Below are positions 14,211 through 40,016 of a DNA stretch of 64,000 nucleotides, in pieces. The position numbers were made by a program, and so were the translations under genes. Every line of letters begins with the position of its first letter. Position 1 is the stretch's first letter. The DNA is from Octopus vulgaris (taxonomy: Eukaryota), in assembly GCA_951406725.2 (NCBI GenBank), contig OX597825.1:16058001-16122000 (forward strand), in the 5' to 3' direction. The notes beneath the pieces are model-generated. The model had not been told where the DNA came from. It made no database searches and was given only the letters and a program-made list of their open reading frames with translations.

Positions 14211-14372
14211 ACATATACAACAGGTTTCTTTAAGTTTCTGTCTACTAAATTCACTCCCAGGGCTTTGATCAGCCTGAGGCTATAGTAGAAGACAGTTGCC
14301 CAAGGTGCCACACAGTGGGACTGAACCCGGAACCATGTGGTTGGTAAACAAGCTACTTACCACACAGCCACT
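13950..14372 (-). mobile_element. SINE family A
   Basis: Reverse complement of the family A sequence. Confidence 0.82.
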
Positions 14373-15195
14373 CAATAAGATGTACCCAGTGTAAGCTATG
14401 GACACATAAGAGGTGCAGCAGTATCAAAGGAAGGCTAACTGGGAAGATAGTTTTTGTATGTGGCAGATGCTCAGGAGCGATAAACAATGAAAATGTGCAG
14501 AGAAAAACCTCTGCCATATTCCAGGGAGAAAAACTAGAAGTAGTTGATAGCTTCCGTTACCTAGGTGACCAAGTCAGTAGTGGAGGTGGGTGCTCTGAAA
14601 GTGTAGCTGCTAGAGTAAAAATAGCCTGGGCAAAGTTCAGAGAGCTCTTACCTCTACTGGTGACAAAGGGCCTGTATGACGCATGTGTACAAACAGCCAT
14701 GCTACATGGCAGTGAAACATGGGCCGTGACTGCTGAGGACATGTGTAAGCTCGCAAGGAATGAAGCCAGTATGCTCCGATGGATGTGTAATGTCAGTGTG
14801 CATACTCAACAGAGTGTAAGTGCCTTGAGAGAAAAGTTGGACCTAAGAAGCATCAGATGTGGTGTGTAAGAGAGACGATTGCGCTGGTATGGTCATGTGG
14901 TGAGAATGGATGAGGATAGCTGTGTGAAGAAGTGTCACATCCTAGTGGTTGAGGGAACCTGTGGAAGAGGTAGGCCCAGGAAGACCTGGGATGAAGTGGT
15001 GAAGCATGACCTTCGGACATTAGGCCTCACTGAGGCAGTGACTATTGACTGAGATCTTTGGAAATATGCTGTGCTTGAGAAGAACCGCCAAGCCAAGTGA
15101 GACCATAACCCATGGCCTATGCCAGTGGTGTAACCATCCCACTTATGCGTACCTTTCCTTCTTTGGACAATAAATTCTGCTTGCGAAAACCTGTT
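14372..15195 (+). mobile_element. 5'-truncated RTE-clade LINE: RT C-terminal region (pseudogenised) and start of 3' UTR
   Basis: Frame 14372-15100 reads ..LEVVDSFRYLG..AARVKIAWAKFREL..HGSETW..RRLRWYGHVVRM..GRGRPRKTW, with a premature TAA at 14867-14869. Confidence 0.9.
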
Positions 15196-18147: not shown

Positions 18148-18314
18148 AATGTATTGTTCCATGATGGTAAATTTAACAAAAAAAAAATACTGCATCTGGT
18201 GAGAGATAAATATTATTTAATAAACAACAGAGTATATATTTTTATGAGCTGTTAGTAGCTCATAAAAAAATATAGTGTTTATTAAATTTTATGTATATAC
18301 ATATATATATATAC

Positions 18315-18869: not shown

Positions 18870-19755
18870 GTATTTCTGGTATCGTACCACAGGACGACAC
18901 TGCATATTGCCAAAGATCCCAGCATTGCCATCACGCTTCAGGACCAGTTACTGCAACAGACTGGGTTTCAAGGGCTCACAGCTTTTTTTAATATTCTCCC
19001 AAAGAGTCTGAGGAACTTGCACAAAGTAGATGATAGTACCAAAGATCCCAGCAATGCCATCACGCTTCGGGACCAGCTACTGCAACAGCCTGGGTTTCAA
19101 GGGCCCACAGCTTTTTTTTATATTCTCCCAAAGAGTCTGAGGAACTTGCACAAAGTAGATGATAGTACCAAAGATCCCAGCAATGCCATCACACTTCAGG
19201 ACCAGTTACTGCAACAGACTGGGTTTCAAGGGCTCACAGCTTTTTTTAATATTCTTCCAAAGAGTCTGAGGAACTTGCACAAAGTAGATGATAGTACCAA
19301 AGATCCCAGCAATGCCATCACGCTTCAGGACCAGTTACTGCAACAGCCTGGGTTTCAAGGGCCCACAGCTTTTTAATATTCTCCCAAAGAGTCTGAGGAA
19401 CTTGCACAAAGTAGATGATAGTACCAAAGATCCCAGCAATGCCATCACGCTTCAGGACCAGTTACTGCAACAGCCTGGGTTTCAAGGGCCCACAGCTTTT
19501 TAATATTCTTCCAAAGAGTCTGAGGAACTTGCACAAAGTAGATGTAGGGTATTTTAAATCAAAGCTGGATCTCTTCCTGCCGAGAGTCCCAGATGAACCT
19601 ACCTCACGGCAAGAGGTGCAAATGAGGGTAGCTATATCAAACTCTATTCGTCACCAAGTGCCACATATTAGAGGAGGCTCTTAGTAATAACAGTGTGGCA
19701 CAAAACGGCGGTGCATCAGCATGGCCGCAGCTCTGAGCTGAAACTAGATAAAAAA
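18870..19755 (+). mobile_element. CR1/L2-like LINE 3' end with internal tandem amplification
   Basis: Reads YCNSLGFKGPQLFNILPKSLRNL..VGYFKSKLDLFL..VPDEP, a typical C-terminus of CR1-group ORF2, then a short 3' UTR with a stem-loop and A-rich end. Confidence 0.75.
18904..19544 (+). repeat. Five tandem copies of a 127-129 bp unit
   Basis: CAAAGATCCC recurs at 18911, 19040, 19169, 19298 and 19425. Confidence 0.95.
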
Positions 19756-22519: not shown

Positions 22520-22567
22520 TGACACCTGATGAAAGCTGGAGGGTATATCAGCCGAAACGTTGTGTTA
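22520..22567 (+). ncRNA. Minimal type I hammerhead ribozyme (family 1)
   Basis: Stem I TGACAC/GTGTTA, CTGATGA 22526-22532, stem II GCTG..CAGC, GAAA 22554-22557, palindromic AACGTT stem III, predicted cleavage after 22561. Confidence 0.8.
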
Positions 22568-23088: not shown

Positions 23089-23287
23089 ATATATATGCAT
23101 GTATATATATATATATGTATGTATATGTATATAGCGAGAAGTTGAGGTTATAAGAGATAATGGTGTCATTGAGACCCAAGGATGTCAGGTAATGCTGAAT
23201 AAGTGCTATAGACAGACCATAGTTAAGTTCCAGATTCGGTAATATTGCAAATAAAGGGTTCACCGTTGGTTCTATGTCAGCGTGTGT

Positions 23288-23440
23288 ATATAAGAATTTT
23301 TTTGCGTAATAAGATAAAAAAAACCAAGGCTATATAGATATTAGAGCATTTATAGATAGATAGACCTTCTATCTATAAATGCTCTAATACCTACACAGCC
23401 TTGGTTTCTTTTTATCTTATTACGCAAAATGTTTCTTATA
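23288..23440. repeat. Fold-back inverted repeat, ~73-bp arms with 7-nt spacer
   Basis: 23288-23360 is largely complementary to 23368-23440. Confidence 0.85.
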
Positions 23441-24164
23441 TATATATATATATATATGCGCTGACTACTTTTTTGATGCTTGAAGGAGAGGTGTACATGT
23501 AGGTATTTAACCTTTTAACTAAATTATTCATGTATATGCAGAATCTGTTTATCTGCATGTATATATATATAAAAGTGAAATGTGTGTGTGTGTGCATGCA
23601 CATATGTATGTGTGTGTGTGTATTTACATGTGTGGTATGAGCTTGTGATATTTGCGTGTGTATATGTGGGCGTATATGTGTGTGGGGGTGAGTGTGGGTG
23701 TATATATGTGCGTGTAGGAGTGAGTGTGAGTGTATATATGTGTGTGTGTTGGTGTGGGTGTATATATATATGTGTGTGTATTTATGTGTATGAGCTTGTG
23801 ATATTTGTGTGGGGGGGGTGTACATATCTGCGTGTGTTTATATCTGGTATGAGCTTGTGATATTATTGTGTGTGTGTATTTGTGTGTTTATGTATGAAAA
23901 TGTGACACTGACACACACACACATACACACACACACATACACACACACACATACACACAAATTTTCATCACCATACTTTTTATGCCATTTTTCCATTCTG
24001 CCATATATTGGTGAATCCTTACAAAAGTCTTTCCACTCATCATGGTTCTCTATCTCTCCATCTAGCAACATATATATATGCTATAGCCCCAGGCCAACTA
24101 AAGCCTAGTGTGCAGATTTGGTAGATGAAAACTGAAAGAATCCCATCGTATATATATATATATA

Positions 24165-24317
24165 CTTTATTTAAAGCAGCAGAAAATTCAACAAAATCTG
24201 TTACTCTGAGTTTCTCGTTGCCGTTCATCAGACAGTTTTTGCTAGACTGTCTGATGAACGGCAACGAGAAACTCAGAGTAACAGATTTTGTTGAATTTTC
24301 TGCTGCTTTAAATAAAG
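24165..24317. repeat. Perfect 72-bp inverted repeat with 9-nt spacer, HHR on each strand
   Basis: 24165-24236 is the reverse complement of 24246-24317. Confidence 0.95.
24246..24291 (+). ncRNA. Type I hammerhead ribozyme (family 2); a copy with fuller stem I lies on the minus strand at ~24191-24242
   Basis: CTGT-CTGATGA(24251-24257)-ACG GCAA CGA-GAAA(24268-24271)-CTCAGAG-TA-ACAG. Stem III is ACTC/GAGT with a GUA triplet at 24278-24280. Confidence 0.72.
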
Positions 24318-24407
24318 CATATTACTCTACCACTGGTATTTGAGTACTCTTTTTTCCACCTTGTTTCATATTTATGTGTTTACTCCGGTATATATATATA
24401 TATATAT

Positions 24408-25030
24408 TGGCTGTGTGGTAAGTAGCTTGCTTACCAACCACATGGTTCCAGGTTCAGTCCCACTGCATGGCACCTTGGGCAAGTGTCTTCTACTATAGCT
24501 TCGGGCTGACCGAAGCCTTGTGAGTGGATTTGGTAGACGGAAACTGAAAGAAGCCCGTCGTATATATGTATATATATATATAAGTGTGTGTGTGTCTCTG
24601 TTTGTCCCCCCAACATCACTTGACAACCATTGCTGGTGTGTTTACGTCCCCGTAACTTAGCGGTTCGGCAAAAGAGACTGATAGAATAAGTACTGGGTTT
24701 ACAAAAGAATAAGTGCTGGGGTCGAGTTGCTCGATTAAAGGCGGTGCTCCAGCATGGCCGCAGTCAAATGACTGAAACACGTAAAAGAGTATATATATAT
24801 ATGTATGTATGTATATATTTGTGTGTCTGTGTTTGTGTCCCCCCCCCACCATTGCTTGACAACTGATGTTGGTGTGTTTATGTCCCTGTAACTTAGTGGT
24901 TCAGCAAAAGAGACTGATAGAATGAGTGCGAGGCTTACTAGGAATAAGTCCTGGGGTCTATTTCTTCAACTAAAAACCCTCTAAGGTGGTGCTCCAGCAT
25001 GGCCGCAGTGAAATAACTGAAACAAGTAAG
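24408..25030 (+). mobile_element. SINE family A plus a duplicated 3' half
   Basis: Family A at 24408-24790, then a second 3' half at 24810-25030. Confidence 0.82.
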
Positions 25031-25918
25031 CCACACACACACACACACACAAACATAATGGTTTCTGATTTCAGCAGAGGGTCAACTATTTTGAAGGGAG
25101 GAATTAATTTATTTCTTTACTACTCACAAGGGGCTAAACATAGAGGGGACAAACAAGGACAGACAAACGGAGTAAGTCGATTGTATCGACCCCAGTGCGT
25201 AACTGGTACTTATTTAATCGACCCCGAAAGGATGAAAGGCAAAGTCGACCTCGGCGGAATTTGAGCTCAGAACGAAATGGCAGACGAAATACGGCTACGC
25301 ATTTCGCCCGGCATGCTAGGGAGGAATTAATTGATGCCTTTGACCCCCAGTACTTGACTGGTATCTAATTTATTTTATTGACTACAAAGGAATGAGAGGT
25401 AAAGTTCACCTTGATGGGATTTAAACTCTGTGACACCATCTTAGTAAGGAATTAGTCATTTATCCATCCAAAATCATTGATTATTTTCGAAATTAATTGA
25501 AACACATGAACAGTGTATTTCTATAGAAGTATGTCTAATGAAATGGTTAATCCCGGTGCTATGTGAATTCTGACTTCTGCCATTTCTGGAATTAGTAAAA
25601 ATATTGATTTCTAACATTGTAGAAACAAACAAAGCCAAACTGATTCTCTGGGGGATGAGGGCGGGAGCGATGTAAGCCAAACGAATTATTATCTTTAACT
25701 GGGAAGTGAAACTGGGTAAATGAACTGAGCTGTCTATGGGATTATCTCTTGGTATGCATCACTTATCACTCAAGATATTGATCATCATTGATATTGATAT
25801 CAATCTCTCTGTCTGTATGTCCCTGTGTCTCTTTCTCTCACTGTCTACTTGTCTGCCTGACTGTCTGTTTGACTGGCTGGCTGGCTGGCTATCTGTCTAT
25901 CCATGTGTCTGCCTACCT

Positions 25919-25957
<39 letters not shown>

Positions 25958-25989
25958 TTATCTATCTGTCTATCTATTTACAAATATTT

Positions 25990-26265
25990 GGTCTGATCAA
26001 CAAGTATCCGGATTGTTGCCATAGTAACGAAGCTGAAGCATGCAGAGTCAAGCCACTTGGCGTAGAATGACCTTGAACTCTGCTGTGCATGTGTGCTAAG
26101 TTTTAACGTTCTATCTCACTTCTGCTGTTTACAGCAGTGCTTGAAAAGAAGGTGTGTAGTGTGTGATCATCACATAGACCATGACAGAGGAAGTTGAGCA
26201 GAGAATCTGCCAAAAGCTTGGTGATACATGCTCAGAGGTCTACACAAAGTTTTCAAAAAGTTTCT
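25990..26265 (+). mobile_element. Mariner transposon 5' remnant
   Basis: ATG at 26181 reads MTEEVEQRIC-QKLGDTCSEVY, like the mariner N-terminus EQR..IKFC.KLG with a short deletion. Confidence 0.6.
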
Positions 26266-26409
26266 TTATTCTCAACACAATCAAGATCTTGTGCAACTGA
26301 AACCCATTATACTGTATAGTCCACAAAATCAAAAACAAACAATGCACCTGCGCAAAATTAAAATTATAACATGGCAACAATTTATCCATCACACCATGTA
26401 TATATATGT

Positions 26410-26662
26410 ATAAAGCATATTACTCTACCACTGGTATTTGAGTACTCTTTTTTCCACCTTGTTTCACATCTATGTGTTTACTCCGGTGTAACCCGCTCCT
26501 TATAAAAGTTTGAGCGACTCTGCACAAGTAGGAAGAACAAACAGCTGAAAAAGATGGAACTTTATATCGGTTCCATTCTAGCAAAAACTGTCTGATGAAC
26601 AGCAACGAGAATCTCAGAGTAACAGATTTTGTTGAATTTTCTGCTGCTTAAAATAAAGTATA
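26410..26662 (+). mobile_element. Unit-length (~243 nt) HHR element (family 2), retrozyme-like
   Basis: Terminal redundancy ATAAAGCATA/ATAAAGTATA, flanked by TA-rich tracts. HHR at 26581-26632 with GAAA mutated to GAAT. Confidence 0.75.
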
Positions 26663-26780
26663 TGTATATATATATAGATAGATATATATATATACACATT
26701 ATCAATTTATTAATAAATAGTTATTAACTTAAATTTCAACTCTACATTTTCTTTTCTTTTCTTCTACTAATTAAATATGG

Positions 26781-29228: not shown

Positions 29229-30158
29229 CTTTCTCCTTCCCTCCTGAGCCGTCTAAACTTCCCTTCACTCTCAACATCCAGAGCCTTTACACGGTGATCC
29301 CTCACTATGAGGAGCTGCGTGCACTCCAGCATTTCCTTGACCTTCAACTCAACCCCCAACCCGACATCGACACTCGTTTGCTGGTGATTTCTACCAGTAG
29401 TTCTCGGGAGTGGCCATGGGAATGAGAATGGGCCCCGACTATGCAAACCTATTCGTTGGCTACATTGAGACCCAAATATTCTCAAGTTTCACTGGTTCCA
29501 CTCCCAAACTATATGACCATTATATTGACGACAGTATTGGTGCGACCCCACTCTCTCGCGAACATCTAGACTCCTTCTTCTCTTTTGTCAAATCGTTCCA
29601 TCCTGCCCTCCACTTCTCCTGCACTATCTCTGACACCTCTGTCTCCTTTCTTGACATTTTGGTCAGCATTCATCACCCCACTCTTACTACCTCCATCCCC
29701 TACAAATGCACAGACTCACACTCATACCTCAACTTCTTCTCCTCCTACCACAAACACACCAAGCTCTCCATCCCCTATTTCCAATTCCTCTGTCTACGCA
29801 GGCTCTGTAGTGACGACCATGACTTTAAGACCCAGTCTCAACTCATGGTTCGCCACTTCATCCTACGTGGATGTCTCCTTCCCACTATCCACACCGCCCT
29901 TGTCAGAGCATGTTCCATGGACCATGCATCTGCTCCCCCCCCTCCGAACCTGCCCTGCAACCTCCCGTTTCCTCTTACCTACCAACCCACCACCCTACTT
30001 CGCCAATGCACCATTCTCCGAGCCTTCCAGCGACTCCAGTTCAACCCCTCCACTTTGGACATCTTCCCTAACCAACCCCTCCCCTCCTTCAAACAAGCCC
30101 ACAACCTACGAGACCTCTTGGTCCAGTGTCTTCCCTAACCCAACCTCCCAACCCAGCT
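29229..30158 (+). mobile_element. Penelope-like element reverse transcriptase fragment (decayed)
   Basis: Motifs FTLNIQSLYTVIPH, AMGMRMGPDYANLFVG, YIDD, FHPALHFS, SFLDI, TDSHSYL..SS.H...K.SIPY.QFL.LRRLCS are characteristic of PLE RT. Internal deletion and frameshift; no GIY-YIG domain retained. Confidence 0.88.
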
Positions 30159-32645: not shown

Positions 32646-32745
32646 TATATATATATATAATAATAATAAATATTAGGGAATAAATCCAAATTTACAGGGA
32701 AAAATCAGATTTAGGATTGAATCCAATTTTATAGTAAAATATAAT

Positions 32746-33028
32746 ATAATATTAATTAGAGACAAAACCACTATTATACAAATCAAACAAAGAAAGACTT
32801 AATCCAATACATAAAAAATTTTATATAAATTAAATATAATTAAGATATCCACTACGATCGTTTCTTGTCATTTCTATTGACATTCATCAGGTGGTTTCAA
32901 GACCTTCTTTGCAAGTTTTTAACTGATAGTAGTAGATATCTTAATTATATTTAATTTATATAAAATTTTTTATGTATTGGATTAAATCTTTCTTTGTATG
33001 ATTTGAATAATAGTGGTTTTGTCTCTAA

Positions 33029-33038
<10 letters not shown>
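32746..33038. repeat. Fold-back inverted repeat, ~114-bp arms
   Basis: 32746-32860 is complementary to 32925-33038 with few mismatches. Confidence 0.9.
32849..32894 (-). ncRNA. Minimal type I hammerhead ribozyme (family 4), intact core
   Basis: Minus strand: CCAC-CTGATGA-ATGTCA ATAGAAA TGACAA-GAAA-CGATCG-TA-GTGG. Palindromic ACGATCGT stem III, GUA triplet. Confidence 0.82.
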
Positions 33039-33097
<59 letters not shown>

Positions 33098-33100
33098 AAT

Positions 33101-33273
33101 TATTCGGTAGCCATGATAAAACTCCAAGTTTTGGATGTCGGGGCAGAAACTGCACCAGCATCTCTTCAGTTATTGGGCCAGATTTTTCGATGGCCCAATA
33201 ACTGAAGAGATGCCGGTGCGAGTTTCCGCCCCAACATCCGAAACTCAGTGTCTTGTCCTATGGCTACCGAATA
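33101..33273. repeat. Fold-back inverted repeat (~80-bp arms, 10-nt spacer) with HHR
   Basis: 33101-33180 pairs with 33191-33273. Confidence 0.88.
33198..33256 (+). ncRNA. Type I hammerhead ribozyme (family 5)
   Basis: ATAA-CTGAAGA(33202-33208)-GATG...CATC-C-GAAA(33240-33243)-CTCAGT-GTC-TTGT. The mirror copy on the minus strand has CGAAA changed to CAAAA. Confidence 0.68.
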
Positions 33274-33754
33274 TGTCACATTTTATATTTACAGATAAAT
33301 TCCTCTATTTACATAATATCAAGGTCTCTTTCATTCTTTTGCTCTTTTACCATTTCTATCAATATATATACATATTTACATAATATTAGGGAGTATAACT
33401 CCAAACTTTCAGGGAAAGATTCAATTTAGTATTAAATCAAATTTCACAATCTAAATATAAATTAGAGAAAAAAAACCATGATAGATCACTTTTGTGATCT
33501 AGTTATATATTTTTAAAAATATTTTTTATTTTTTATTTATGATTAGGTTTATGTCTATCATTGTTTGAATTGCATGATGGTGGTTTTTTTCTCTAATTTA
33601 TACATATATATATAAGACACGTCAGCTAATTATAATCACTGTCTTCCACACATGCAGGTTTGTCCTTTCAGGTGCTGGTGCCACATAAAAGGCACCTGTG
33701 CCACTGCTGTGTTAATGCACCCCCTGCACTGGTGCTGCATAAATGCACCCATGA

Positions 33755-38902: not shown

Positions 38903-39302
38903 TACTCTTTTACTCTTTTACTTGTTTCAGTCATTTGACTGCGGCCATGCTGGAGCACTGCCTTTAATCGAGCAACTCGATCCCGGGGCTTATTCTTTTG
39001 TAAGCCCAGTACTTATTTTATCGGTCTCTTTTGCCGAACCACTAAGTAACTGGGACATAAACACACTGGCATTGGTTGTCAAGCAGTGCCAGGGGGACAA
39101 ACACAGACACACAAACACATAAACGCATATATATATATACATATATATGACGGGCTTCTTTCAGTTTCCGTCTAACAAATCCACTCACAAGGCTTTGGTC
39201 GGCCCAAGGCTATAGTAGAAGACACTTGCCCAAGGTGCCATGCAGTGGGATTGAACCCGGAACCATGTGGTTGGTAAACAAGCTACTTACCACACAGCCA
39301 CT
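38903..39302 (-). mobile_element. SINE family A
   Basis: Full reverse-complement copy. Confidence 0.85.
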
Positions 39303-39524
39303 GTTTATGTGTCATTTAAAAAACACGCAAAAACCGTTAGATTCACTTCAGCATTTAAATTTAATTTGTGTCAAAATATTTTTGTTGCTTTGATGCAGCA
39401 CAAAATTTTGTCAGTGAACAGGTCACAGTGTCAAAGCGACAAATATATTTTGATACAAATTAAACTTAAATGTTGAAGTGAGTCTAACGGCTTTTTTGTG
39501 TGTTTTTTAAATGGCATATAAACA
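39303..39524. repeat. Fold-back inverted repeat (~91-bp arms)
   Basis: 39303-39393 pairs with 39431-39524. Confidence 0.87.
39409..39455 (+). ncRNA. Hammerhead-like fold, G3-C8 core variant, decayed copy (family 7)
   Basis: TGTCA-GTGAACA(39414-39420)-GGTCAC..GCGAC-AAAT-ATAT-TT-TGATA. The GAAA box is not intact in either arm (left arm reads CAAAA). Confidence 0.5.
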
Positions 39525-40016
39525 CCTTCCGTGCTACAGTAAAAATTAAATCATGTTATATGGTACATTATTTGTCCTAATCTTATTATTGATTGTTTGG
39601 CTAAAACCTTCAAGGAGGTGCTCCACCTTGGCCACCTTCCAATGACTGAAGCAAATAAAAAGTAAAGAGTATAGTTTATATATATATATATATATCATCA
39701 TCGCTAGAGTTTATATATATATATCATCATCGCTGGTGCAGCCATCTGGCTCACCAGTCCTCAGTCAAATCGTCCAACCCATGCTAGCATGGAAAGCGGA
39801 CGTTAAATGATGATGATGATGTCATCATCATCATTTAATATCTGTTTTCAACACTGGCATAGGGTGGGGCGGTTTGACCAGAGCTGGCAAGTTGGAGACT
39901 TGCATCAAATTCCAGTCTGATTTGGCATTGCTTCTATGGCTGGATATTCTTCTTAATGTTTTATATATATATATATATTAATTGCAGTGTACAGTGTTAT
40001 ATATCCATTATGGCTG

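Follow-up and report, generated by a model that had tools for sequence, protein, structure and literature searches.

Penelope-like elements (PLEs), in their published layout, carry an inverted and 5'-truncated pseudo-LTR, a tail on one arm only and a palindrome at the junction between the arms (PMC3846280; PMC8557442), and solo Penelope units lacking pseudo-LTRs are also on record (PMC2377424), as are internal microhomology deletions in the Penelopes of Adineta (PMC3846280). For the anole Poseidon element PAc, in vitro work has described two internal start sites of reverse transcription with the tail lying between them, and AT-rich target DNA (PMC11167929). Minimal, dimer-type hammerhead ribozymes of PLEs were reported by Cervera and de la Pena in 2014 (PMC4209133), who also proposed circular templates for these elements, and an origin of retrozymes from PLE ends has already been put forward (Li et al. 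2026, bioRxiv 10.64898/2026.07.22.740005). PLEs are abundant and recently active in Octopus vulgaris, with 31 families and 336 recent insertions (PMC13282606); the word "ribozyme" does not occur in the main text of that 2026 repeat paper. Our literature search returned no report of a hammerhead-bearing PLE or retrozyme in octopus, a result that covers search listings and the papers cited here; the supplements of the hammerhead papers may list one.

The window analysed here is the whole stretch of 64,000 nt from O. vulgaris, which is AT- and microsatellite-rich. An earlier note had read the segment near position 26410 as a circularly permuted hammerhead monomer of about 243 nt, copied from a tandem or circular RNA of that size. 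We compare this segment (copy B) with a related one some two kilobases upstream (copy A). The two are most likely insertions of one high-copy PLE family of the octopus genome that would include a coding body.

Anatomy of copies A and B

The features of the two copies are as follows.

24165–24245, minus strand: inverted arm of copy A, a 5'-truncated pseudo-LTR with an intact hammerhead (core 24231–24202), tail absent, CTAG palindrome at the inner junction
24246–24389, plus strand: direct arm of copy A, intact hammerhead (core 24251–24280) plus a 72-nt tail, ending in (TA)n
26396–26409, no strand: TA-rich target tract on the left of copy B, with its counterpart on the right at 26659–26698; the two share a 10-mer
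26410–26487, plus strand: block X (the "tail") of copy B, with which the unit begins beyond the short 3' end site; identical to 24312–24389 at 76 of 78 positions
26487, plus strand: right end of X, the long 3' end of the family, with loose (AT)n ends behind it
26488–26564, plus strand: block Y, putative start of the element body, with an ATG at 26554; rare in the family (depth 203–8282 times below that of X)
26563–26564, plus strand: join of Y, the body start, to the body end, a 2-nt TA overlap with loose ends in run contigs; candidate deletion or template-jump point
26563–26658, plus strand: pseudo-LTR portion of copy B up to the short 3' end (AATAAAG), behind which the TA tract begins; 3 differences in 81 nt from the inverted arm of copy A, which has the same end
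26588–26625, plus strand: minimal type I hammerhead of copy B, with stem I at 26588–91/26622–25, core at 26592–98 and stem II at 26600–07
26609–26621, plus strand: remainder of this hammerhead, GAA(T) at 26609–12, palindromic stem III at 26612–20, predicted cut after 26621

Copy A is a PLE insertion of textbook layout: its pseudo-LTRs are inverted, only one arm carries a tail, and the target is a TA tract. Over 72 of 72 nt the two arms do not differ, and the CTAG palindrome marks the point where they meet; the left arm ends in AATAAAG followed by (TA)n, and the right arm runs 72 nt further, to 24389, before (TA)n begins. The inverted hammerhead arm at 24165–24245 was missing from the earlier note. 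The TA tract that contains copy A lies between 24070–24152 and 24405–24560, which are two copies of a very common dispersed repeat with about 20 matches in the window. Two small hairpins, 24303–24317 and 24322–24347, appear in both the minimum-energy and the centroid folds; the former has the short 3' end at its base, an arrangement reminiscent of the stem-loop at which reverse transcription starts in the anole PLE.

Copy B comprises residues 26410–26658. The permuted order described earlier was borne out: block X (78 nt, 2 differences) lies 3' of the hammerhead in copy A and 5' of it in copy B. The offset from 26410 to 26653 does measure 243 nt, and for copy B alone this unit has a GC content of 37.4%. 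Between X and the hammerhead side lies Y, the 75-nt middle part. The exact terminal redundancy amounts to 6 nt (ATAAAG), and the TATAT that follows most likely belongs to the target tract, since in the inverted arm of copy A the same AATAAAG end gives way to (TA)n. All three ends present in the window for copies A and B adjoin TA tracts. At its 5' end copy B begins at the short 3'-end site; the unit contains about six ATA/TAT clusters, of which this is one. A 10-nt target-site duplication around copy B was considered and rejected: the 10-mer is present 83 times in the window, and in 7619 of 58860 trials (13%) randomly drawn cut points in TA tracts gave a match of 10 nt, so that the 10-mer shared by the flanks is at chance level.

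Elsewhere in the window, a retroelement frame at 14348–14869 has its closest named matches in proteins of Octopus bimaculoides (70% identity) and O. vulgaris (82% identity), and a 129-nt tandem repeat with an open frame across it is present in 5 copies at 96% (18910–19544). Further self-palindromes of 90–270 nt lie at 23287–23442, 33051–33319, 39302–39524, 39764–39878 and 18206–18296, and some of them may be inverted PLE ends.

The hammerhead motif

Three copies of one hammerhead-like motif are found in 24160–26662, two in copy A facing outward and one in copy B. The motif consists of stem I (CUGU/ACAG), the core CUGAUGA, GAAA, a palindromic stem III and UA. Stem II has only 2 bp, closed as CG-GCAA-CG with a GCAA loop, and is flanked on each side by an unpaired A. 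The presence of a hammerhead in copy B was upheld, as one member of a minimal type I motif family supported by a structural descriptor. This descriptor found 4 cores in the window as compared with a mean of 0.04 (maximum 1) in 100 locally shuffled windows, which places the motif beyond chance. The hammerhead of copy B itself falls outside the strict form of the descriptor owing to its GAAT at 26609–12.

The change from GAAA to GAAT had been recognised before, with the suggestion that this copy is probably inactive, and a further lesion, a stem II G replaced by A at 26601, can now be added to it. Both lesions are rare in the family: in all four sequencing runs compared, A at 26612 accounts for 99.5–100% of the depth and G at 26601 for 95.8–99.8%. 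Judged from these bases, the ribozyme of copy B is probably inactive.

Searches of Rfam gave no match at the gathering score, and at E≤10 none of the 25 matches belonged to a hammerhead family; they consisted solely of hairpin look-alikes of the copy A palindrome and of microsatellites. The hammerhead is unstable as a folded monomer (+1.6 kcal/mol), and self-pairing of the palindromic stem III is calculated at -7.4 kcal/mol in copy A and -5.4 kcal/mol in copy B, a combination in keeping with the minimal hammerheads of PLEs that act as dimers (PMC4209133), apart from the missing G10.1-C11.1 pair. Single-strand folds of the hammerhead regions are not better than those of shuffled sequences (z of -0.19 and 0.46), and a 243-nt circle folds only slightly better than its shuffles (z of -1.7, 200 shuffles).

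A second, unrelated hammerhead occurs in the window at 32739–33046 (core 32890–32853, minus strand), with a 5-bp stem II flanked by an A on both sides and with a palindromic stem III. The inverted repeat around it terminates in (TA)n, making this another PLE-type insertion laid out like copy A. Of two further hammerhead-like cores on the plus strand, that at 33202–33252 passes the strict descriptor and that at 22526–22561 the loose one only.

The family in public sequencing runs and its putative body

Part of the stretch is contained in 20 of the 24 listed sequencing runs, which fall under three organism codes, with none of them on record as RNA. Contigs were compared for four of the 24 (X1, X2, X5 and X8), in which 8666, 2837, 2904 and 418 contig records fit, respectively. 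Such numbers of records identify the family as an abundant, diverged repeat. The summed depth of the bins covering X and the hammerhead reaches 10^5–10^6 in X1, X2 and X5 and about 10^4–10^5 in X8, and the depth of Y relative to X given above was taken at 26491–99 in the four runs. No family motif was matched in metagenome (two scans), viral or prokaryote collections.

The run contigs show a very abundant repeat in which the hammerhead is followed by X and X by (AT)n. Position 26487, with (AT)n behind it, is the main 3' end among those listed and was seen in 74, 81, 72 and 11 contigs of the respective runs. The hammerhead segment is joined to X in every run compared, a joint that on the coordinates of copy B goes back 243 nt; it is the hammerhead-to-X order already present in copy A and is no proof of a 243-nt ring. 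Four contigs of X5 contain a perfect inversion at the same CTAG as copy A, with a loose end before 26578.

The join between Y and the hammerhead side of copy B was crossed by none of the 32 pieces listed for inspection out of 14,927, contigs being a form of record that drops rare variants. Nine of the 32 touch Y and six reach 26562–64 from Y, and pieces 8, 14 and 15 continue beyond 26562–63 with 53, 57 and 109 unlike letters, respectively. Loose ends before 26563–64 share one common consensus in all four runs, and loose ends behind 26564 are found in two (X2 and X8). Y continues into other sequence in three runs, and in all four the sequence upstream of the hammerhead side is not that of copy B. 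From these other neighbours on both sides of 26562–64 it follows that the family unit would consist of X, Y, a body of some length and the hammerhead region. The unit of 243 nt proposed before depends on this very join and found no support in the comparison. Two short motifs taken from the run-on and upstream letters have no match in the window.

Summed depth over 26536–62 differs among the runs. In X1 it lies at 33–35 thousand, 95 times that at 26491–99, as compared with 0.35–1.33 times in the other three. The rise in X1 could come from contigs bridging the join of copy B, from short contigs of another repeat or from alignments carried on into the natural upstream sequence of the family, in which patches similar to the end of Y can be made out by eye. 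In X8 the depth is flat at 162.3 over the same interval and one contig carries 45 loose letters behind 26564, a pattern consistent with one contig that turns off into the body without branching.

Four contig variants have extra letters at 26499–26509, a stretch of pyrimidines with AG at its end that lies 5' of the ATG at 26554. This insert, recognised by eye from matching depth values, is possibly the acceptor of a 5'-UTR intron as in Penelope; it is missing from copy B and from the commonest variant in X2, X5 and X8.

The sequence known beyond each side of the join amounts to 30 letters. The frame of the ATG at 26554 stays open through 30 run-on letters in X2 and X8, and three of five differences fall at third positions, a weak indication made by eye. 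A peptide search with the frame of 19 codons in which Y ends returned no relative, which is a weak test. An open reading frame starting at the ATG of the hammerhead and passing through X and Y was rejected: it stops at codon 30 in copy A and at codons 10, 34 and 40 in copy B, its profile gave three matches, all to unrelated repeat proteins, and the T of this ATG is C in 3–65% of the depth. No reverse transcriptase or GIY-YIG frame could be linked to the A/B family, and the peptide searches were empty. A frame fragment of a PLE-type reverse transcriptase lies on the plus strand at 29401–30138, with about 50% identity to reverse transcriptase proteins of 430–930 residues, and ends in a TA tract; it was rejected as the family body, as no link to the A/B family was seen.

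Origin of copy B and relation to known elements

Copy B is probably a damaged, internally shortened unit of a longer PLE-type element, the body of which was cut out at a TA microhomology. The family unit would exceed 243 nt and would be made up of the tail (X), the body start (Y), an unseen body and a 3' region that carries the hammerhead, of the minimal, dimer type. A PLE endonuclease, which we infer by analogy with the in vitro behaviour of the anole PLE, would cut the TA tract, and reverse transcriptase would begin the cDNA inside the RNA at either a "short" site (equivalent to 26658) or a "long, with tail" site (26487), using a tandem or permuted RNA as template. The majority of copies would stop within 100–180 nt, part of them as inverted pairs like copy A. 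Copy B would then represent a single unit, bounded by the short site at either end, that lost its body at the TA overlap at 26563–64, either through a template jump during insertion or through a later microhomology-mediated deletion, and two point mutations may have hit its ribozyme afterwards. The tail-first order follows from the tandem or permuted layout of any PLE unit and needs no small circle, and the figure of 243 nt would follow from the deletion that joins body start to body end. Since a single PLE unit already reads tail-first, the permuted tail is no signature of a circular RNA. On the DNA side, the outcome that the earlier note had itself set against its circle, copies that are terminal repeats of longer PLEs, is largely borne out.

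The matching start and end of copy B point to a template of unit length, tandem or circular, or to a site-specific cut, so that of the tandem or circular RNA proposed earlier a template of some length is plausible and the length of 243 nt is what lacks support. This identity of sites, with its 6-nt redundancy, and the depth rise in X1 count against the deletion reading. They speak instead for a 243-nt non-autonomous unit, born once by deletion from a PLE and then spread through a tandem or circular RNA that paired hammerheads would cleave, in which copy B would be one full turn, a nascent non-LTR retrozyme. Its size and GC content of 37% suit retrozymes (PMC7229834), and the 2026 preprint derives vertebrate retrozymes from PLE pseudo-LTRs (10.64898/2026.07.22.740005). 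We nevertheless regard this origin as doubtful, given a join that none of the listed pieces crosses and that has other neighbours on both sides, a hammerhead that is minimal and not canonical, and a circle that barely outperforms its shuffles; the tandem arrays that it would lead one to look for are also missing, none of 243 nt being found among the 100 tandem-repeat rows of the window. If it were true, copy B would record the birth of a retrozyme in a cephalopod, a PLE enzyme having copied the 243-nt unit for exactly one turn from start site to start site, and would be direct evidence, at the level of the genome, that the RNA template was circular or tandem and that the route leads from PLE to retrozyme; the organism behind run X1 might then possess an amplified subfamily. 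Should the 243-nt join prove recurrent, the use of circular templates by PLEs and the origin of retrozymes from them would become testable at this locus.

AT microhomology with the target could also have produced the matching ends by chance, the short site being an AT-rich stretch well suited to joining a TA tract. It would also account for these ends in a quite unlikely reading in which the family is a longer non-autonomous element without a coding body, either a PLE-dependent SINE-like unit or a larger retrozyme unit, or in which copy B is what two separate deletions left of a copy with pseudo-LTR, body and pseudo-LTR. A coding body has indeed not been seen within the few letters known beyond the join, but the open frame of the ATG at 26554 in X2 and X8 argues to some degree against a non-autonomous element, and two deletions are less economical than one. 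It is very improbable that the join is an assembly error or that the motif is no hammerhead at all. Such doubts might be raised by the microsatellite-rich surroundings, the silence of Rfam and the atypical stem II; they are answered by the scarcity of descriptor cores in shuffled windows, by the same A-flanked stem II in the unrelated hammerhead at 32853–32890, and by the position of the join at a TA overlap within non-repetitive sequence.

We return to the reading of copy B as a shortened PLE unit for the comparison with described elements. Non-LTR retrozymes (PMC7229834; 10.64898/2026.07.22.740005) share with copy B a type I hammerhead, a nominal unit of 243 nt, a GC content below 45%, a unit without a coding frame and a likely PLE origin. 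They differ from it in their head-to-tail tandem units, from dimers to multimers, which are absent from the window, as the join is from the listed contigs, and in their hammerheads, which are described as canonical (PMC7229834), whereas that of copy B is minimal, with 2 bp in stem II and a positive folding energy. The Naiad PLEs of octopus (Naiad_Obim and Naiad_Ovul; PMC8557442) have the host and the preference for insertion into (TA)n in common with copies A and B. However, four motifs from the window have no exact match in the supplement of PMC8557442, in which line breaks could hide one, the printed Naiad ends look different, and Naiads lack canonical hammerheads.

The closest agreement is with the pseudo-LTRs of endonuclease-bearing PLEs. 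In these the type I hammerhead is minimal, stem III is palindromic and A9 is followed by an unpaired base (PMC4209133), and like copies A and B they are mostly solitary truncated copies or inverted pairs with an optional tail on one arm, two defined 3' ends, heavy 5' truncation, AT-rich or microsatellite targets and internal microhomology deletions. Differences concern the tail, of 72 nt here as compared with 30–40 nt in published PLEs, and stem II, where copies A and B have 2 bp with an A on both sides and lack the G10.1-C11.1 pair of the minimal PLE hammerhead consensus printed in PMC4209133. On these structural features we would assign the A/B family to PLE pseudo-LTRs and would not file it as a non-LTR retrozyme; the likely reading is an ordinary one, that of one more PLE family with a minimal hammerhead.
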